From Escherichia coli (GTDB taxonomy: Bacteria > Pseudomonadota > Gammaproteobacteria > Enterobacterales > Enterobacteriaceae): 64,000 nt of DNA. This document shows, one piece after another, positions 3,536-56,875 of this stretch. The stretch lies in assembly GCF_029227855.1 (NCBI RefSeq), contig NZ_CP074356.1, one strand, 5' to 3'. The notes under the pieces are model-generated. The model did not search any database. It worked only from the letters and a program-made list of their open reading frames with translations, and was not told the DNA's origin. Each line of letters begins with the position of its first letter. Within the stretch, counting starts at the first letter, position 1. The position numbers were made by a program, and so were the translations under genes.

Positions 3536-7243
<3,708 letters not shown>

Positions 7244-46587: not shown

Positions 46588-47184
46588 ATGGTTGGTGTTA
46601 CTCAAAGGTCAGGGAATTACTCACGTAATGTGCAGGTGGTTGTCGATTCTAACTCTGTTGATATTATAAAGTCTCCATCGATTTTTATGGATCTTGTTGG
46701 TATTTTAGTTGATTCGAATGTTATTGATCCTCGTACAAACAATGACTACGAGCCATATGATATTGAGAATAAAATAGACTTCAATGATGTTATAAAACAT
46801 AGAGAACGTATTGAAGGGTTCTATCTATATTCTTCGATGATAGATAAAGCGTATGAAACATTAAATGAAAGTATGCCTACTGCTAAGGAAACGGCACTGA
46901 AAAGCATCAATTCACGATATCTTGATTGTCAAGGAGATTTATTGCTTAAACATAGAGAAGCGTATAAGAGCTGCAAGGATGCTCAGGAACGGAATAATTT
47001 AAAGATTCAATTGGTAAGAGAGTTTGCAGATTGGATAATAGACAGTGTAATAGAGCACATCATTAAGAAATGCTTAAATTCTCTTATGGCAATGAATTAC
47101 ACAAGCGAAGAAATCGAATGCCATGCTTCTTTTATCGTTTATCATGCATTCGTAGAGTGTAAGATTCTGGAAAAACCAATATGA
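46588..47184 (+). CDS. hypothetical protein (198 aa), second gene of the AT-rich cassette
   Basis: ATG 46588 with GAGG SD; stop overlaps the next start (ATGA); no motif I recognise. Confidence 0.65.
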   Translation: MVGVTQRSGNYSRNVQVVVDSNSVDIIKSPSIFMDLVGILVDSNVIDPRTNNDYEPYDIENKIDFNDVIKHRERIEGFYLYSSMIDKAYETLNESMPTAKETALKSINSRYLDCQGDLLLKHREAYKSCKDAQERNNLKIQLVREFADWIIDSVIEHIIKKCLNSLMAMNYTSEEIECHASFIVYHAFVECKILEKPI

Positions 47185-47417
47185 TTATCTCTGATGTAAC
47201 AAAACCAAGCCAAACCTTGTATTACCTGGGAGCTCGGTTATTAGAATGCATGAGTTCAAATGCTTATTCGTATGTTGATATTATAGACTTGTATAATGAA
47301 TTCAAATCTAAAAATAACAACTCTTCATTCACGCAATATATTTACACTTTAAATTGGCTATATTTATTAGGCCTGGTTGATGCTAACGAAAATGGAGATT
47401 TGATATTATGTTTTTGA
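47181..47417 (+). CDS. hypothetical small protein (78 aa), third gene of the AT-rich cassette
   Basis: ATG 47181 overlapping the upstream stop; 3' end overlaps the ATPase start by 10 nt. Confidence 0.6.
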   Translation: MIISDVTKPSQTLYYLGARLLECMSSNAYSYVDIIDLYNEFKSKNNNSSFTQYIYTLNWLYLLGLVDANENGDLILCF

Positions 47418-49132
47418 AACGGCTAATAGTCAGTTCTTTCAGGCTTGGAGTGATTCGTGATATCGAATTTCACATTGGCGTTAATTTGATTATTGACCGA
47501 AACACCTCCAGCAAAGAGCAAACTGGAAATGGTGTGGGAAAAACTACTGTATTAAGAGCTTTAGATTTTTGTTTTGGAGCAGAACAACTGAATTTTTATA
47601 CCGATCCTGAATTCAAGAAAGAAAATTCGGTTATAAAAAATTATTTGATAGAGAACGAGATTGAGTTTTGTTTAATTCTCACAAAAGATTTGAATAATAA
47701 AACTGCACCAGTAATAAAAATTAAGCGTAAAATTACATCTGAGACTAATAAAACGAAGGTTATAGCCTCAATAAATGAAGAGTCCTATACGAAGGCTAAA
47801 GATTTCAACGAGGCTTTAAAAAGAACATTATATCTTGATTCCGCGATAAAACCGACCATACGAGAGATTATGGGACGTGTTATTCGAAATACGCATGACA
47901 AGATGTCGAACGCATTAAAAACGATAAAAATGGGTTCTAATACACAATATGAAACGTTAAATCTGTTTATGTTTGGGTTCGGTAACTCACAGATTCTGGA
48001 TGAAAAACAGTCAGTGACTAAAGCCTATAAACTGGCGAAATCCGATTATGAAGTAATTACTCGCCATCGCTCAAAGAATGCTTTGGAACAAGCTATTGCA
48101 ATTATAAATAGAGATATTATAGCACAAGAAGAGTTAATTTCTAATTTTCAAGTGGCAGACTCTTATAATGATATGCTTGCTGAGTTAAATGAGTTAAAAA
48201 TTAAAATTAGTGAAGTTTCTATCACACTATCATCTTTGGAGTTTAAGCAAAAATTAAACGATAAGGCTATACTAGATCTGGAAAAAAGTCATGAAAATAT
48301 AAATACACTAGATCTACAGAAGTTGTACTTAGAAGCAACTGATCGGTTAGGTAACTTAAACAAAGAGTTTACTGAGCTACTTTCGTTTCATAATAAAATG
48401 CTTGTAAAAAAAGCTGAGTTTATTAGAAAACAAATGCAGCCAGTGCTGCAAGAAATTTCCAAATATAAAGATGAACTAAATAATTTATTGACTCAAGAAT
48501 CAGAGCTTTTAAAGAGTTTGTCTTCGCATGGGACATTGGCAGACCTGCAAATAATGCAAAAAAAATTAAATTCATTATTTGAAGAAAAAGGTGGGCTTGA
48601 AGCTGGACTACTTCAAATCCAAGAGATGGAGAACAACTTTAATATACTGAAAGCAAAGTTTAATGATGTGTCAGATAGATTAAAATCTAAACTTGACGAT
48701 TTTAACAAACGTCTTGCGCTATTCAATTCCTATTTTTCTTTATATACTAAAAAATTATATCAGGATGAATATATTCTTTCCTATAAAGATTCCTCCGGTT
48801 CTTTCGTTTTTACCATTGAACCTTTAGGAACTTTGCTCACATCAGGTAATCAGGGAGAAGGAAAAAAGAAAGCCCAGGTTGCCTCTTTAGATTTTGCCTA
48901 TTTATCTGTCCAGGAGTCTTTAGAAGCCAGAACACCACGTTTTATAGCTCATGATGGAATTGAGGCAATTCATGTAAATCAAATAAATAAGTTATTCGAG
49001 ATAGCTTCGGGGATTAATGGTCAATATATATTGGCTATTCTTAAAGACAAGTTGGAGAATATTGATCAAGACTTCATCAATAATAGTGTTGTGCTTGAGC
49101 TTGGGGAGGACGATAAGTTTTTTAGGCTTTAA
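47408..49132 (+). CDS. SMC/Rad50/ABC-type coiled-coil ATPase (574 aa), fourth gene of the AT-rich cassette
   Basis: N-terminal P-loop TGNGVGKTTVLRALDFCFG (RecF/SMC-type Walker A); ~300-aa heptad-rich central region; C-terminal TSGNQGEG (signature-like) followed by RFIAHDGIEAIH (Walker-B/D-loop-like); GGAG SD. Confidence 0.8.
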   Translation: MFLKRLIVSSFRLGVIRDIEFHIGVNLIIDRNTSSKEQTGNGVGKTTVLRALDFCFGAEQLNFYTDPEFKKENSVIKNYLIENEIEFCLILTKDLNNKTAPVIKIKRKITSETNKTKVIASINEESYTKAKDFNEALKRTLYLDSAIKPTIREIMGRVIRNTHDKMSNALKTIKMGSNTQYETLNLFMFGFGNSQILDEKQSVTKAYKLAKSDYEVITRHRSKNALEQAIAIINRDIIAQEELISNFQVADSYNDMLAELNELKIKISEVSITLSSLEFKQKLNDKAILDLEKSHENINTLDLQKLYLEATDRLGNLNKEFTELLSFHNKMLVKKAEFIRKQMQPVLQEISKYKDELNNLLTQESELLKSLSSHGTLADLQIMQKKLNSLFEEKGGLEAGLLQIQEMENNFNILKAKFNDVSDRLKSKLDDFNKRLALFNSYFSLYTKKLYQDEYILSYKDSSGSFVFTIEPLGTLLTSGNQGEGKKKAQVASLDFAYLSVQESLEARTPRFIAHDGIEAIHVNQINKLFEIASGINGQYILAILKDKLENIDQDFINNSVVLELGEDDKFFRL

Positions 49133-49366: not shown

Positions 49367-49577
49367 TTTCATATTGGCGAGATAACGGGAGTTAAGTAGA
49401 ATGCCTGCGGGTGCTTGAGGCTATCTGCCTCGGGCATGAACACCAACGGCAGATAGAGAAAAGCCCCAGTTAACATTACGCGTCCTGCAAGACGCTTAAC
49501 ATTAATCTGAGGCCAATTTCATGCTAGACACATGTAGGTTAGCCTCTTACGTGCCGAAAGGCAAGGAGAAGCAGGCT

Positions 49578-49733
49578 ATGAAGCAGCAAAAGGCGATGTT
49601 AATCGCCCTGATCGTCATCTGTTTAACCGTCATAGTGACGGCACTGGTAACGAGGAAAGACCTCTGCGAGGTACGAATCCGAACCGGCCAGACGGAGGTC
49701 GCTGTCTTCACAGCTTACGAACCTGAGGAGTAA
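49578..49733 (+). CDS. hokD: Hok/Gef-family membrane toxin HokD (51 aa)
   Basis: ATG 49578 preceded by AAGGAGAAG; MKQQKAMLIALIVICLTVIVTALVTRKDLCEVRIRTGQTEVAVFTAYEPEE; ORF track shows an in-frame upstream extension from 49521. Confidence 0.86.
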   Translation: MKQQKAMLIALIVICLTVIVTALVTRKDLCEVRIRTGQTEVAVFTAYEPEE

Positions 49734-50547: not shown

Positions 50548-51597
50548 GTGCGGGTATTACTTCGACCTGTTCTGGTACCGGAACTCGGGCTGGTGGTCGT
50601 TAAGCCGGGCCGTGAATCCATGCCGGTATTCCACAATACCCGGGTACTGGTGGAGCCGGAACCGAAAAGCATGCGTAATCTGCCGTCCGGGGTCGTTCCT
50701 GCCGTTCGCCAGCCGCTGGTGGAAGACAAAACATTGCTGCCGTTTTTCAGTAACGCACGGGTGATTCGTGCTGCTGGTGGTGCTGGTGCATTGTCTGACT
50801 GGCTGTTGCGCCATATTAAATCCTGCCAGTGGCCACACGGCGATTATCATCACAGCGAAACCGTCATTCACCGTTATGGTACCGGCGCAATGGTGTTGTG
50901 CTGGCACTGCGACAACCAGCTGCGTGACCAGACATCCGAATCACTCGAGCAAGTTGCTCATCAAAACCTGTCAGCATGGATGATTGACGTCATCGGTCAC
51001 GCAATAAGCGGTACGCAGGAGCGTGAATTATCTCTGGCTGAATTATCCTGGTGGGCGGTCCGCAATCAGGTGGCGGACGCGCTACCGGAAGCGGTATTAC
51101 GTCGTTCGCTGGGGTTGCGTGCGGAAAAAATCCGCTCAATGTACCGCGAAAGCGACATCGTACCGGGAGAGCAGACCGCCACCAGCATATTGAAACAGCG
51201 CACAAAAAATCTTGCACCGTTGCCTCACGCCCACCAGCAACAAAACCCATCACAGGAAAAGACGGTGGTAAGCATCACCGTTGATCCAGAGTCTCCGGAA
51301 TCTTTCATGAAGCTGCCTAAACGTCACCGTTGGGTTAAGGAGAAATACACACGCTGGGTTAAGACACAGCCGTGTGCTTGCTGCGGGATGCCAGCCGACG
51401 ATCCGCATCATCTGATTGGTCACGGGCAGGGCGGAATGGGAACCAAAGCACATGATCTCTTTGTGTTGCCTTTGTGCAGAAAGCATCACGACGAGTTGCA
51501 TACGGATACCGTGGCATTTGAAGAGAAGTATGGCTCCCAACTGGAGCTGATTTTTCGATTTATCGATCGCGCGCTGGCAATTGGTGTGCTGGCCTAA
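50548..51597 (+). CDS. ydfU: DUF968-family prophage protein YdfU (349 aa)
   Basis: ORF track 349 aa, GTG start after GGAGG; C-terminal Cys/His cluster CACCGMP...[10 protein letters not shown]...CRKHHDELH. Confidence 0.87.
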
Positions 51598-51614
51598 TTT
51601 TGTGGAGTAAGTTG

Positions 51615-51992
51615 ATGCGTGATATTCAGATGGTTCTTGAGCGTTGGGGGGCATGGGCGGCTAATAATCATGAAGATGTGACCTGGTCGTCCATTGCCGC
51701 TGGTTTTAAGGGATTAATTCCTTCAAAAGTAAGATCTCGTCCGCAATGCTGTGACGATGACGCGATGATCATTTGTGAATGTATGGCTCGCCTGAGAAAA
51801 AACAACAGCGATTTACATGGTTTATTGGTGGACTATTATGTCGGCGGCATGACTTTTATGGCGCTTGCACGTAAGCATGGGCGATCTGATTGTTGGGTTG
51901 GCAGGATGCTCCAGAAAGCTGAGGGCGTAGTGGAGGGCATGCTGATGGTATTGGATCTCCGATTGGAGATGGATGCTGATTGTTCGAAATAA
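51615..51992 (+). CDS. late-gene antiterminator Q (QuuD-type), about 126 aa
   Basis: ORF 51600..51992 (TTG); ATG at 51615 after GGAG; [34 protein letters not shown]... recognised as the short Q family of DLP12 QuuD. Confidence 0.85.
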
Positions 51993-51999
51993 TTAAAGG

Positions 52000-52060
52000 A
52001 AAAGTTGCTGTCTGATTGTCATTAGTCTAACATTTTAAATGTTGGAATCGCAACGTAGTT
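52000..52060 (+). promoter_or_regulatory. putative late promoter / qut region (pR'-like), not precisely mapped
   Basis: AT-rich segment with TTGTCA and TAAATG/TATCAT candidate hexamers between the Q stop and a strong terminator. Confidence 0.3.
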
Positions 52061-52081
52061 ATTATCATATAACAGCTTGTT

Positions 52082-52109
52082 TCCTGATTTAGCCAGCCTC
52101 CCCAAAGGC
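52082..52109 (+). terminator. Rho-independent terminator (tR'-like) downstream of Q
   Basis: ccagcc-tccccaaa-ggctgg hairpin followed by TTTTTTT. Confidence 0.65.
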
Positions 52110-52147
52110 TGGTTTTTTTCTAATAAGTATCATTTCGGGTAGGGATT

Positions 52148-52672
52148 TTATTGTTTAACCCATAATAATTCATTGACATTGAATCCCAACTTTTGAGCGG
52201 TTCGCACATAGTCTGCTTTTACTTTATCTGGAATAGTTGGGGTCCTTGCCAGAATCCATAGGTATTCTCTGTTCGAACCACTAACAAGAGCATACTTATA
52301 CTCATCATCCAGTTTGATTACATTATAGCCACCATAGAAGGGGCCAAAAAACGAAACCTTCAACGCTGCAGTTTTAGTATCTCCAGTAAAGTATGCTTTA
52401 CCTTCGCTCTCGCTCCATTTATTTTTCGTTGGATCGTATCCACGGTTAAGTACACGAATCCCTCCGTCGTTCCGTTTTCCATAAGTAGCGCTGACCTGTT
52501 CCAGACCACGTTCGAACCGGTTCTCGAGGCGAGCTATTTCATACCATTTTCCGAGGTAGCGGTTGGCGTCAAAATTTGTAATCGGCTGCACACCTTTAGG
52601 TGGTGTCGGGGCCTTACATGCTATAAGAGTGAAAGAGAGTGCAATGCCAGTCAACACAGGCCATAACTTCAT
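52148..52672 (-). CDS. outer-membrane lipocalin Blc homologue (about 174 aa), prophage cargo
   Basis: ORF 52148..52678 (-); ATG at 52670-52672 with AGGA SD; lipobox LIAC; lipocalin motifs NFDANRYLGKWYEIARL, YNVIKLDDEYKYALVSG; AT-rich. Confidence 0.85.
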   Translation of the reverse strand: MKLWPVLTGIALSFTLIACKAPTPPKGVQPITNFDANRYLGKWYEIARLENRFERGLEQVSATYGKRNDGGIRVLNRGYDPTKNKWSESEGKAYFTGDTKTAALKVSFFGPFYGGYNVIKLDDEYKYALVSGSNREYLWILARTPTIPDKVKADYVRTAQKLGFNVNELLWVKQ

Positions 52673-52864
52673 AATCAATCCTGTACTTTTGATAGTTGAG
52701 AGTAAGTATGAAAGATAGATGATTACGACCGATCACTTAAAGAACTTTCATACTATATTAGGAATAGTCCATAACAGAAAAATTGTCAGTGATGACGTCA
52801 GAAAGGCAATTTATTCCGTGCACTACACAGTTTATGTGTTAATGAATTAGTCAAGGGGGAGGAT

Positions 52865-53824
52865 ATGATAAAAAAACCTGTGATTGGAATCAGCGGTTGT
52901 TTGGCCGGTTCTGCTGTTCGTTTTGATGGTGGTCACAAAAGAGCTGACTTTTTAATGGACAAATTAGTGGAATGGGTAACATTCAGACCAGTATGTCCGG
53001 AAATGGCTATAGGGCTGCCAGTTCCGCGTCCTGCTCTACGTCTTGTGCGCTCGAAGCAAGGAAATATACGGATGTGTTTCAGCCACGACCAGAATGAGGA
53101 TGTGACAGAGAGAATGACAGAGTTTAGTCGTTCTTATATGCACAAATTAAAGGATGTATCGGGGTTTGTGGTTTGTGCTAAATCTCCCAGCTGTGGCATG
53201 GAGCGCGTGCGTGTCTATGATGAAAATGGTAATCGAGGTCGTAAAGATGGAGTGGGACTATTTACGAGCACTTTGATGGAAAAGTTTTCCTGGCTACCGG
53301 TTGAAGAGGATGGGCGATTACATGATCCAGTGCTTCGTGAGAATTTTGTTGAAAGAGTTTTTGCTTTGCATGAGCTCAATCACCTTTACAAGGAGAAATT
53401 ATCAAGAAGAGAGTTATTAGCTTTTCATAGTCGTTATAAGCTTCAGTTGTTGGCGCATAGTCAGGCAGGCTATAAAGATATGGGACCATTTGTGGCTGCA
53501 ATACACGAGTGGGCGGACCTTGAATCATACTTTGAGGTGTATCGTGATAAGCTGATGGCGATTCTCAGAAAACCTGCATCACGTAAAAATCACACGAATG
53601 TGCTGATGCATATACAGGGGTATTTTAGTAATTACTTAAGTACACGCCAGCGTAAAGAGTTGACCGAGGTTATACTTAACTATCGCTTTGGCACATTGCC
53701 TCTTCTTGCGCCGTTGACTCTGCTGAAGCATTATCTGGGTGAGTATCCTAATGATTACTTGCTTACACAGAATTACTTCGATCCCTATCCGGAAGAACTG
53801 GCTCTAAGACTGATGGTGAATTAA
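52865..53824 (+). CDS. two-domain DUF523 (TudS-like Fe-S thio-nucleobase desulfidase) plus DUF1722 protein, RudS-like (319 aa)
   Basis: ORF track 319 aa; GGGGGAGG SD; N-terminal GISGCLAGSAVRFDGGHK with further Cys at FRPVCPEM and VVCAKSPSCGM (three-Cys Fe-S pattern); C-terminal half YbgA-like. Confidence 0.75.
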   Translation: MIKKPVIGISGCLAGSAVRFDGGHKRADFLMDKLVEWVTFRPVCPEMAIGLPVPRPALRLVRSKQGNIRMCFSHDQNEDVTERMTEFSRSYMHKLKDVSGFVVCAKSPSCGMERVRVYDENGNRGRKDGVGLFTSTLMEKFSWLPVEEDGRLHDPVLRENFVERVFALHELNHLYKEKLSRRELLAFHSRYKLQLLAHSQAGYKDMGPFVAAIHEWADLESYFEVYRDKLMAILRKPASRKNHTNVLMHIQGYFSNYLSTRQRKELTEVILNYRFGTLPLLAPLTLLKHYLGEYPNDYLLTQNYFDPYPEELALRLMVN

Positions 53825-54230
53825 CTGTATGCGATATCATCTGAAAGTGATGAGTTCCTGTATGCAGGATATTTACAATCGTAAAAACTACACTATGATA
53901 CCCATAGTGTCAGTTTGTATAAAAATCCTGTTCACGCTGAAGAAAACATTGAGATGCAATTTAATGTTGGTAAACATACCAGCCCCAAAAGATTTTATTC
54001 AATCTGTTTTTATATGAAGATATTTCAAGTGAATATTAAGAGTATATAATATTATTATTGCACGCAGCTATTATAATATAACAGATTAGTTTAATGATTT
54101 GTTTTTTGTGAGTTAAACACATGGTTTTATAGTTGTGATGCAATGAGATTTTCCTTATTGTTGAACTGGCGAATATTGATTTTCCACCTATACTTACCTG
54201 GTGTAACCCCAGTGATATCAGGTGGATAAT

Positions 54231-54944
54231 ATGCCATACATATGTTCTGTCATTTTGGTGTTGAACTCGTTTGGTGTCCGAATTGGTAAAGAAGATATTT
54301 TGTTTAAAAAAGGAAGTGCTGTCCTCATCGAATACAATTTAAAAGATCTTTTTTCGTCAAATACAGATCATCTAATGATCGTAGATGTTGAGGAGAAAAC
54401 AGTTAATGATTTCTTTAAAAACTACACACTCTCACCTTTTTCTGTAAGAAGGTTTTATCCGGCATACTTGATAGTAGAATGTGAAGGTTTTTCTTTGTTA
54501 AAGAACTTGGTTGCATGCTTGAATTGTGATAGCAAAACCGTGGATGTGGTTAGAAATCAAATATCACTTGCATGTCTTGCTGTCTTATCTTCAGAGAAAA
54601 TAGTGCAAAGTTTTTTGTTCGGAAGTCTTAATAGCTTAGGTTGTAAAGTTAAGGCTATTATTCACTCGGATATCTCAGCGTCATGGAGACTTTGTGATAT
54701 ATCTTCAAGATTATATATGAGCGAGAGTTTGTTAAAAAGAAAATTAAAAGACGAAGGGGTATCGTTTAGTAGATTAATTCTTGAAGAACGAATGATGATG
54801 GCGCAAAGATTATTAATTTACAGTAACCATACTGTCGGCAAGGTGGCGGGAATATGCGGGTATGACAATGCATCATATTTTGTAAGTGTTTTTAGAAGAT
54901 ATTTTGGTGTGCCTCCGCACCAATATTTATCAAGATTTTCTTAG
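54231..54944 (+). CDS. AraC/XylS-family transcriptional regulator (about 237 aa), prophage cargo
   Basis: ORF 54222..54944 (GTG); ATG at 54231; C-terminal HTH ...HTVGKVAGICGYDNASYFVSVFRRYFGVPPHQY; AT-rich with long AT-rich upstream region. Confidence 0.85.
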   Translation: MPYICSVILVLNSFGVRIGKEDILFKKGSAVLIEYNLKDLFSSNTDHLMIVDVEEKTVNDFFKNYTLSPFSVRRFYPAYLIVECEGFSLLKNLVACLNCDSKTVDVVRNQISLACLAVLSSEKIVQSFLFGSLNSLGCKVKAIIHSDISASWRLCDISSRLYMSESLLKRKLKDEGVSFSRLILEERMMMAQRLLIYSNHTVGKVAGICGYDNASYFVSVFRRYFGVPPHQYLSRFS

Positions 54945-55135
54945 AAGATATGATGTGATGGCATTTTATAAAGTTGTTTTTTTGAAGTGTAAGATTATAC
55001 GATATTTTTAGCTACGCCAGAATAATTGCTGGCGTTTTTCTTTTTGAATAGATGTTCGGGCCTTACGCTAATGTAATTTTTTTCCTTCTTCGAACCAAAC
55101 CGTGTACACCATCCGTTATCTGCGGAGGTGAGGCT

Positions 55136-55351
55136 ATGAAATCCATGGATAAGTTAACAACGGGCATCGCCTACGGCACCTCTGCAGGCAGTGCTGGCTA
55201 CTGGTTTTTACAGTTGCTCGATAAAGTCACGCCCTCACAGTGGGCGGCAATAGGTGTATTGGGTAGTCTGGTATTTGGCATGCTGACGTATCTGACTAAC
55301 CTTTATTTCAAGATTAAAGAAGACAGGCGTAAGGCTGAGAGAGGAGAGTAA
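55136..55351 (+). CDS. essQ: phage holin (71 aa)
   Basis: ORF 55052..55351; ATG 55136 after GGAGGTGAGG; [30 protein letters not shown]...[13 protein letters not shown]. Confidence 0.88.
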
Positions 55352-55355
55352 TCCA

Positions 55356-55700
55356 ATGACTCAAGTATACGAACTGGTTGTGAAAGGAGTCCGTAATTTT
55401 GAGAATAAAGTTGCGGTAACTTTAGCCTTACAGGACAAAGAACGCTTTGACGGTGAGATTTTTGACCTTGATATCACTATGGATCGTGTTGAAGGTGCTG
55501 CACTGGAGTTTTATGAGGCAGCAGCCAGAAGGAGAATCAGACAGGTGTTCTTGGATGTTGCTGCCGGGTTATGTGAAGGGGATGAGCAGTCGCCGGAAAA
55601 GCGCCCCATAATTTTAGAGGCGCAGAATGTGTGGATAACCTACAAAGGAAAGCTACCAGGAAGAATTACTGGTTATCTGAAGACTCCGCCGGAATGTTAA
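55356..55700 (+). CDS. hypothetical protein between holin and endolysin (114 aa)
   Basis: ATG 55356 after GAGGAGAG, 5 nt after the holin stop. Confidence 0.5.
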   Translation: MTQVYELVVKGVRNFENKVAVTLALQDKERFDGEIFDLDITMDRVEGAALEFYEAAARRRIRQVFLDVAAGLCEGDEQSPEKRPIILEAQNVWITYKGKLPGRITGYLKTPPEC

Positions 55701-55938
55701 TTTTAACAGCATATTTCTCTTCCAGTAATGCCACCAGCCACTTGAAGGAATTTTGTTGTTCCTGGGACCATTTGGGGCTGTGTGATTCAAGCTGGAGCGA
55801 TGCCAGTGTTGGTTGCATTTGTTCCCTGGGAATTGACAATGCCAGATATGAAAATGCGACAGTAAGGGCATTAACATCATCCCGAAGCCTGGAAATGCAG
55901 TCGAGCAACTCCTGAAGAGAAATGGTGTTATTGTCCAT
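55666..55938 (-). CDS. hypothetical protein, antisense to the lysis cassette (90 aa)
   Basis: Minus-strand ATG at 55936-55938 preceded by AAGAGGA; 3' end overlaps the convergent 114-aa ORF by 35 nt. Confidence 0.45.
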   Translation of the reverse strand: MDNNTISLQELLDCISRLRDDVNALTVAFSYLALSIPREQMQPTLASLQLESHSPKWSQEQQNSFKWLVALLEEKYAVKINIPAESSDNQ

Positions 55939-56577: not shown

Positions 56578-56875
56578 GCAGAATATTTCTCTGAAAAATG
56601 ACGTTGGCCAACGCGAGTGGATAACACGATATTCGTCATAAATGAATTGAAGTAGTGAATAAGAGCAGAACCCCCGATTGCGCGAACAGTCGGGTTTTTT
56701 GTGTTTCCTGACTCCGGAAAAGCCAAAGGAGAAAGTGTGTTTGATTTTAGCAAACTGATTCGGGAGATTCGAACTATGGTTGAAAAATTATCCACCTGGA
56801 AATTCATTCTTTTCTGGCTGGTGTTTGCGATTATGGCCTCCGGTTATTTCATTGCTCAGATACGCTGGTGGTGAA

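Follow-up and report, generated by a model that had tools for sequence, protein, structure and literature searches.

Extra genes inserted between conserved neighbours in phage genomes are called morons, a concept that reportedly goes back to Hendrix and colleagues, with bor and lom as examples in lambda. In the late region of lambdoid phages, two described arrangements are close to the locus considered here. Shiga toxin (Stx) phages with a Q933-type antiterminator gene Q carry the late promoter pR', the terminator tR', the leader StxS and stx, whereas in DLP12 and phage 4A7 the order is Q, a porin gene on the minus strand (nmpC/ompD), pR' and the holin gene. In both lambda and Stx phages, pR' is constitutive (PMC7547250). 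In this study, we analysed a 64,000-nucleotide (nt) stretch of Escherichia coli DNA (contig NZ_CP074356.1, assembly GCF_029227855.1; hereafter the window), in which three genes, blc, rudS and araC, stand between Q and the holin gene. A preliminary description of this region had likened their place to that of the toxin genes in Stx phages. Comparison with related phages suggests, with a probability of roughly 0.6, that the three genes constitute a conserved moron cassette in the late region and that pR' lies between rudS and araC.

The Q protein of the window matched Pfam PF06530 (E = 3.9e-50), which corresponds to the Q21 family in the naming of Yin et al. (PMC9388147) and not to the phage-82 family. 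It is a distant match of the solved Q21 structure 6P18 and is 75–82% identical to Q of VT2-Sakai, phage 4A7 and many Stx1 and Stx2 phages; its longest open reading frame (ORF) starts at 51600. Since these Q proteins are homologous, the parallel with the position of the Stx genes rests on homology and not on layout alone. The promoter core of this Q family, TTTACAATCGTAAAAA-N6-TATGAT-N3-CATAGT, was found at 53872-53908, downstream of rudS. In the proposed pR', the -35 hexamer lies within the palindrome TTTACAATCGTAAA and is separated by 16 nt from the -10 hexamer TATGAT (53894-53899); the pause-element-like hexamer CATAGT occupies 53903-53908, and transcription is predicted to start near A53906. 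The mapped pR' start of VT2-Sakai precedes the StxS 3' end by 258 nt (PMC7547250), and this distance puts it at the A of AGTGG, 7 nt past TATCAT, in a promoter reading TTTACG-ATCGTAAAAATCTGCA-TATCAT-GAT-AAGAGT. The window core agrees with this mapped promoter at 15 of 16 bases and shares with it the spacer length of 16 nt and the A(GTG) at the start, a likeness in core, spacing and start context to the Stx phages. The hexamer 3 nt past the -10 keeps A2 and T6 everywhere, being AAGAGT in the canonical modules and CATAGT, CAGAGT or TATAGT in the cassette.

The window contains the core once as an exact match, against 0.12 matches expected by chance at up to two mismatches, and one copy is likewise present in each of 39 cassette-bearing loci and in VT2-Sakai. 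TTTACAATCGTAAAAACT together with TATGAT (53872-53899) was invariant in 20 distinct variants, while the surrounding rudS-araC intergenic DNA was divergent. When IMG/VR was scanned with the 16-mer TTTACRATCGTAAAAA (window 53872-53887), it was found, with TATnnT 6 nt on, as a marker in the window and in L053-L131; about 38 of the matching contigs were lambdoid, and the other ca. 40 matches fell by chance on unrelated contigs. Wherever a lambdoid contig was found to have a Q of the family (61–100% identical), the core stood downstream of Q, at 406–4356 nt from the Q start, and was followed after 825–5115 nt by lysis genes. These observations suggest that TTTACRATCGTAAAAA plus TATnnT is a signature of the late promoter that goes with a Stx-type Q. 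Besides, the recognition helix of Q appeared to covary with the core: the helix IGKRL occurred with G at core base 6 in 6/6 distinct combinations and (V/I)GR(M/L)L with A in 11/11, to which the window conforms with VGRML and A, although these counts are not phylogenetically independent. Based on these results, pR' is probably located at 53872-53908, between rudS and araC, and not next to Q.

A late promoter away from Q has a precedent in phage 4A7, in which the promoter module follows the porin gene and lies directly upstream of the holin gene. The phages compared have cargo in two slots, Q-to-pR' and pR'-to-holin, and the contents of each slot vary among them. The Q-to-pR' slot of one IMG/VR contig (L063) is filled by a minus-strand gene for a 698-amino-acid protein with four repeats of ca. 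50 amino acids (-2308 to -212 from the core), and that of another (L060) holds a gene for a 691-amino-acid methyltransferase-like protein. Like DLP12 and 4A7, the locus has a Q of the same family and an S21-type holin, and its cargo separates Q from the promoter module and includes an outer-membrane protein gene on the minus strand. It differs from them in that the cargo is a lipocalin and RudS instead of a porin, and from 4A7 also in that the latter has a canonical terminator right past the promoter and no gene between promoter and holin. The proposed parallel with stx is supported by the homology of the Q proteins, but blc and rudS more likely occupy the position of the DLP12/4A7 porin. Unlike in Stx phages, where cargo also stands between Q and the lysis genes, two genes separate Q from the core in the window, over a distance of 1.9 kb.

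The preliminary description had pointed instead to the DNA immediately after Q. This 155-nt spacer is indeed AT-rich (35.5% G+C) and ends in a strong terminator-like hairpin with U7 (52091-52119; -14.9 kcal/mol, z = -4.1 against shuffles), the stem of which was invariant in 17 distinct variants. In one alternative reading, pR' and tR' lie here (ca. 52000-52119), the whole cassette follows tR' as stx does, and rudS and araC join the late transcript through Q-dependent read-through, with the motif at 53872 being either a fossil promoter or the own promoter of araC. This reading is consistent with the close abutment of pR' to Q in many lambdoid phages (core 406–461 nt from the Q start, that is, at the Q end), with the 91–99% conservation of the segment together with Q, with the conservation of the hexamer pairs TTGCTG-17-TAACAT and TGGAGA-18-AATAAT, and with the relationship of the hairpin to the Stx-phage terminator called tR' by Sy et al. 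However, the Q-family core, TTTACRATCGTAAAAA with the pause-like hexamer, is absent from the region after Q, and two contigs with the Q recognition helix of the window (L060 and L065) use the canonical promoter core. Furthermore, TTGCTG/TAACAT matches the consensus at 7/12 positions, under the scan threshold, and although its -35 was invariant in 17 variants, the spacer varies and the -10 changes from TAACAT to TAATGT in the 1H12 lineage. Promoter-like hexamers in 50.5–57 kb occurred at the shuffle level (13 vs 13.0 ± 3.7), and the term 'promoter-like' thus carries no statistical weight, here or elsewhere in the region; terminator-like sites exceeded it (11 vs 5.7 ± 2.4). We consider a late promoter next to Q unlikely, at appreciably lower odds than one downstream of rudS.

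The segment after Q also aligns with an internal 3' part of the StxS leader rather than with the Stx promoter. Window 52015-52119 aligned with the 3' part of the StxS leader plus its terminator (VT2-Sakai L005 ca. 7100-7218), and the 12-mer GCCAGCCTCCCC in the hairpin stem is identical to L005 7189-7200. A direct repeat links the segment to the araC leader: 52053-52097 corresponds to 54062-54106, with 85% identity over the first 26 nt (52053-52078 vs 54062-54087) and a weaker similarity that runs on for ca. 45 nt. Judging from the StxS alignment and this repeat, the hairpin after Q resembles a piece of an StxS-related pR' leader that has been displaced, and the repeat may be a trace of the recombination from which the present arrangement arose. 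Its U-tract is on the plus strand only, so the hairpin stops rightward transcription and cannot serve blc. The name tR', which the preliminary description gave to this hairpin, is an interpretation and not an observation; it may be justified by descent but probably not by the present wiring. The weak hexamers could yield a transcript of ca. 80–120 nt folding into two hairpins (z = -4.0 for the predicted fold). An StxS-like activation of rpoS by this leader was rejected for lack of seed pairing: its best duplex with rpoS -128..-93 reached -8.1 kcal/mol, which was matched by 73/100 shuffles, whereas the StxS control reached -23.2 kcal/mol with the rpoS leader, a value attained by 0/100 shuffles. 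In this respect, the StxS-like segment of the window is unlike its counterpart in Stx phages, to whose StxS terminator the hairpin is nevertheless related.

If pR' lies downstream of rudS, its terminator has to be sought further on. In canonical modules, the stretch from about +27 to +50 forms a hairpin (AAACCCGCC...GGCGGG-T5-7), which the cassette, in contrast to Stx phages, lacks. The first strong terminator past 53906 is the hairpin at 55014-55045 (-11.3 kcal/mol, z = -3.3 against shuffles), which was conserved with its U-tract in 15 variants while the 70 nt before it were only ca. 60–65% conserved. It lies ca. 1.1 kb from the proposed pR', behind a gene, which is unusual; in Stx phages, the terminator comes before the cargo and not after it. 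Since pR' is constitutive in related phages and the lysis genes need a shield, the hairpin at 55014-55045, as the sole candidate, would do that job, and we propose it as the working tR' of this phage lineage. With the shielding terminator behind araC, araC would come to lie inside the pR'-to-terminator leader. An AraC-like gene (37% identity) was also seen directly past a canonical pR'-plus-hairpin unit in a contig of another phage lineage (L058, 79-1027), suggesting that AraC-like regulators recur just after pR'.

The same conserved hairpin can be read differently, as the tR' of a promoter located in the araC-holin interval of 190 nt, with all three cargo genes outside the late operon. The 4A7 module, in which promoter and terminator directly precede the holin gene, and the promoter-like TTATCA-16-TATGAT at 54927-54954 would suit such a promoter. 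In contrast, the DNA from the araC stop to the hairpin is only ca. 60–65% conserved among lineages whose Q proteins are 95–98% identical, the TATGAT is lost elsewhere (TGTAAC in 1H12), and the Q-family core is absent there. This placement was rejected because of the poor conservation among lineages with nearly identical Q, and we regard it as highly improbable.

With pR' between rudS and araC, it is hypothesised that the transcription of the cassette would be as described below. blc and rudS would sit in the Q-to-pR' gap, the slot of the DLP12/4A7 porin, and be independent of Q, being expressed in the lysogen from their own promoters; after induction, early rightward transcription continuing past Q would perhaps extend into rudS as well. 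In the lysogen, a transcript of ca. 1.1 kb from the constitutive pR' could express araC even without Q, and the terminator at 55014-55045 would keep the lysis genes off. After induction, Q-modified polymerase would pass this terminator into the late genes. The hairpin after Q would now just halt rightward transcription before it enters blc in the antisense direction. The earlier suggestion that both plus-strand genes are transcribed by Q-dependent read-through would then hold for araC, which is downstream of the proposed pR', but not for rudS, which is upstream of it; the accompanying suggestion that cassette genes have own promoters in the lysogen is plausible.

Several points weigh against this placement of pR' and the wiring derived from it. 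The start sites, pausing, Q loading and termination are all deduced from sequence. The transcribed sequence past the pause-like hexamer differs from the canonical GGTTAC..., which might hinder the loading of Q. For Q21, the binding element described in the literature consists of two 8-bp subsites in direct repeat; the core here, being a palindrome and not such a repeat, is only a putative Q binding site. Few independent lineages underlie the covariation between helix and core base. Silencing of the 325-nt AT-rich leader (e.g. by H-NS) or termination within it by Rho is conceivable, in which case araC would perhaps not be expressed from pR', and the main source of araC transcripts may be promoter-like sites of its own (54106-54133 and others). 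Finally, the segment after Q, conserved as it is and with its promoter-like hexamers, may have a second role.

The preliminary description identified the genes correctly: a lipocalin is encoded on the minus strand, and a DUF523/DUF1722 protein and an AraC-type regulator on the plus strand. The lipocalin, whose gene is convergent with Q, scored 312 bits on the NCBIfam Blc subfamily model NF007786 (cut-off 267), its N-terminus MKLWPVLTGIALSFTLIAC ends in a lipobox (LIAC) as a lipoprotein signal, and it is 97% identical to gp65 of phage 1H12. The DUF523/DUF1722 protein matched Pfam PF04463 and PF08349 (each ca. 1e-39); the former domain is now known as TudS, for 2-thiouracil desulfurase. It is 92% identical to RudS_vir (1H12 gp66), with an equal length of 319 amino acids and the same cassette and genome position. 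Its Cys12, Cys44 and Cys110 align with the cluster ligands Cys10, Cys43 and Cys104 of TudS 6Z92 and are the residues listed for RudS_vir (PMC11417400). RudS_vir and bacterial RudS, when overexpressed in E. coli, lower tRNA 4-thiouridine (s4U), and RudS of Pseudomonas putida reduces the growth delay caused by UVA (Jamontas et al., NAR 2024, PMC11417400). Whereas RudS_vir is an assayed protein, the function of the window RudS is assigned by homology, and it is predicted to be a [4Fe-4S] tRNA 4-thiouridine desulfidase. Upstream of rudS, the hexamers of TTGTCA-18-CAATTT were conserved in 13 distinct blc-rudS intergenic variants. The palindrome TGACGTCA before rudS was rejected as a regulator site, as it occurs only in the variant of this window. 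The inverted repeat at 53890-53910 was likewise rejected as a rudS terminator; it is better accounted for by the -10 plus pause-like hexamer, and the palindrome is lost in other variants.

PatE, PsrA and PsrB of O157:H7 and YdeO of K-12 are regulators that switch on acid-resistance genes. The best NCBIfam matches of the AraC-type regulator were YdeO, HilD and GadX, all under the cut-offs (YdeO: 115 bits over residues 4-234, cut-off 348), and it stays under every curated family cut-off. It is 48% identical over its full 237 amino acids to Sakai ECs_0287, which is likely PatE (z0321, OI-8), judging from its position in prophage Sp1/OI-8. Like PatE, PsrA, PsrB, YdeO and AppY, it has an AraC-type C-terminal DNA-binding domain and, as with the PatE type, its gene is AT-rich and lies on a lambdoid prophage; the comparison suggests that it belongs in the PatE/PsrA/PsrB/YdeO group. 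PatE-like copies differ in location, standing near the tail-fibre or attachment end of the prophage and not between Q and holin. araC is the most variable gene of the cassette, with 76–97% identity between lineages (76% to 1H12 gp67), and is followed by the conserved terminator described above. A search for shared repeats that could serve as AraC binding sites in both intergenic regions gave nothing convincing.

The three genes were confirmed as an insertion between Q and the holin gene, with a G+C content of 38.6% in 51993-54944 against 47–54% in the flanks and 48.2% in the whole window (blc 43.6%, rudS 43.3%, araC 34.3%, Q 47.4%, lysis genes 47.1%). A cargo slot between Q and the lysis genes was also confirmed: the homologous slot holds a porin gene in 4A7 and tRNA genes, stx and nanS-p in VT2-Sakai, and methyltransferases, antirepressor-like genes and others elsewhere. 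As in lambda-type morons, extra genes of lower G+C content stand between conserved neighbours, the contents vary among related phages, and a predicted terminator of the cassette's own follows araC. Unlike in such morons, araC appears to borrow the late promoter of the phage and to supply a terminator that would shield the lysis genes.

The cassette is ordinary, widespread prophage cargo that has often been sequenced before and is partly characterised. We counted the cassette as present where at least 80% of the Q-to-holin stretch was found, which was the case for 954 of 5426 complete E. coli genomes and for 12 phage records; by itself, rudS was seen in 1135 of the genomes (20.9%), almost always on the chromosome. 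The three genes occur in the same order in 12 sequenced temperate phages, including 1H12, Lambda_2E9, the ev087 group and IdasGreatGrand. The order and strands Q+, Blc-, RudS+, AraC+, holin+ were constant in 36/36 IMG/VR cassette loci, around which the upstream genes and the type of the downstream lysozyme vary. That the cassette is decaying cargo, inert passenger DNA in a cryptic prophage with no role for phage or host, might be suspected from the IS-damaged copies (IS, insertion sequence), which are common (BL21, CX12, XH990); in E. coli B/BL21, the first 147 bp of rudS are left, cut by IS3. However, the cassette is intact in functional sequenced temperate phages, blc and rudS are 92–99% conserved across backbones that differ on both sides, the catalytic cysteines of RudS are intact, and six other prophages have rudS in their early region as an insert by itself. 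Decay is thus an improbable explanation.

In these six IMG/VR prophages (L044-L049, 4001-4960 each), which form a different lambdoid group, a 73%-identical rudS with a terminator of its own is located in the nin region between a gene for a DNA-binding protein and dinI, co-oriented with the early operon, and blc and araC are present in 0/6. The order in L044 is cII, O, P, ..., rudS, dinI, rusA, DUF968, Q, where a promoter-like site also belongs to rudS itself. This placement fits early rather than late expression of rudS. A bolder reading, which we hold only tentatively and consider doubtful as a whole, is that the phage rewired its late switch for the lysogen and acts early in the lytic cycle through rudS. 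pR' would have lost its nearby terminator and would drive an AraC-type regulator that reprogrammes the host, with the relocated terminator keeping lysis silent until Q arrives. rudS would always be within reach of early lytic transcription, in the Q-pR' gap here and beside dinI in the nin region of the six prophages. RudS would then remove s4U from the tRNA of the host soon after UV-triggered induction, and tRNA cross-linking and the stringent response would spare phage protein synthesis.

The region belongs to an intact-looking lambdoid prophage at the Qin site adjoining rspB, with genes for integrase, exonuclease, repressor/cro, Q, lysis, terminase, capsid and tail, and the window is 100% identical to E. 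coli WP2-W18-ESBL-08. Features of the region are collected in Table 1.

Table 1. Features between the DUF968 gene and the holin gene, with positions in the window
Feature	Position	Strand	Evidence or remarks
DUF968 gene	50548-51597	+	54.3% G+C
Q, Q21 family	51615-51992 (RefSeq start)	+	Pfam PF06530; PHROG 79
Leader-like AT-rich segment after Q	52005-52090	+	Aligns with 3' part of StxS leader
Intrinsic terminator after Q	52091-52119	+	9-bp G+C-rich stem, 6-nt loop, U7
Blc-family lipocalin lipoprotein, 174 amino acids	52148-52672	-	NCBIfam NF007786; RefSeq annotation
Predicted rudS promoter, TTGTCA-18-CAATTT	52783-52812	+	Conserved hexamers; inference
rudS, TudS (DUF523) + DUF1722 fusion, 319 amino acids	52865-53824	+	Pfam PF04463 + PF08349
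rudS-araC intergenic region, 406 nt, 31% G+C	53825-54230		
Proposed late promoter pR'	53872-53908	+	Comparative sequence; 10/12 promoter match
AT-rich araC leader with further promoter-like sites	53909-54230	+	
AraC/XylS-type regulator, 237 amino acids	54231-54944	+	NCBIfam profiles; RefSeq annotation
Intrinsic terminator, hairpin + U-tract, 96 nt 5' of holin gene	55014-55045	+	
S21-type holin (EssD-like), first late gene	55136-55351	+	PHROG 9876 and 20; RefSeq annotation

No tRNA genes of the kind that Stx phages carry were found in the region, a further difference from those phages. An Rfam scan gave sok only, outside the region, and a weak sub-threshold match on the hairpin after Q. No LexA box was found upstream of the cassette genes, and one chance-level site lies within rudS. 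PADLOC gave no defence-family match for any of the three cassette proteins, and an anti-phage defence role for them was rejected on this basis. Elsewhere in the prophage, three co-oriented early-region genes of ca. 30–35% G+C (46588-49132) are annotated in RefSeq as ABC-three-component-system proteins and a DUF2326 protein, and the 574-amino-acid protein encoded there matched the candidate defence family PDC-M68B (E = 1e-41). A hok/sok-type toxin-antitoxin locus is present at 49409-49733 (Rfam sok, 115 bits; hokD annotated at 49578-49733). Between the holin and lysozyme genes (55356-55938), a YdfR-family gene and a conserved minus-strand ORF of 90 amino acids (phrog_2411) interrupt the lysis cassette, and at 56673-56702, between the lysozyme and Rz genes, there is a terminator-like hairpin plus U-tract.

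The RudS study describes E. coli as being without RudS, and its assay host was BL21(DE3) (PMC11417400), a strain in which we found the 147-bp remnant of rudS. With prophage copies in 1135 of the 5426 genomes, that statement holds for K-12 only. In O157, regulators of the PatE group increase acid resistance and reduce type III secretion. The cassette, widespread in E. coli, would bring in an enzyme that erases a UV-sensing tRNA modification together with a relative of these regulators, and the timing of expression of its genes, in the lysogen or upon induction, decides how their effects should be sought. The putative late-promoter signature of the Stx-type Q family and the two cargo slots may aid the annotation of Stx and related prophages and help to predict which passenger genes are co-induced with lysis.

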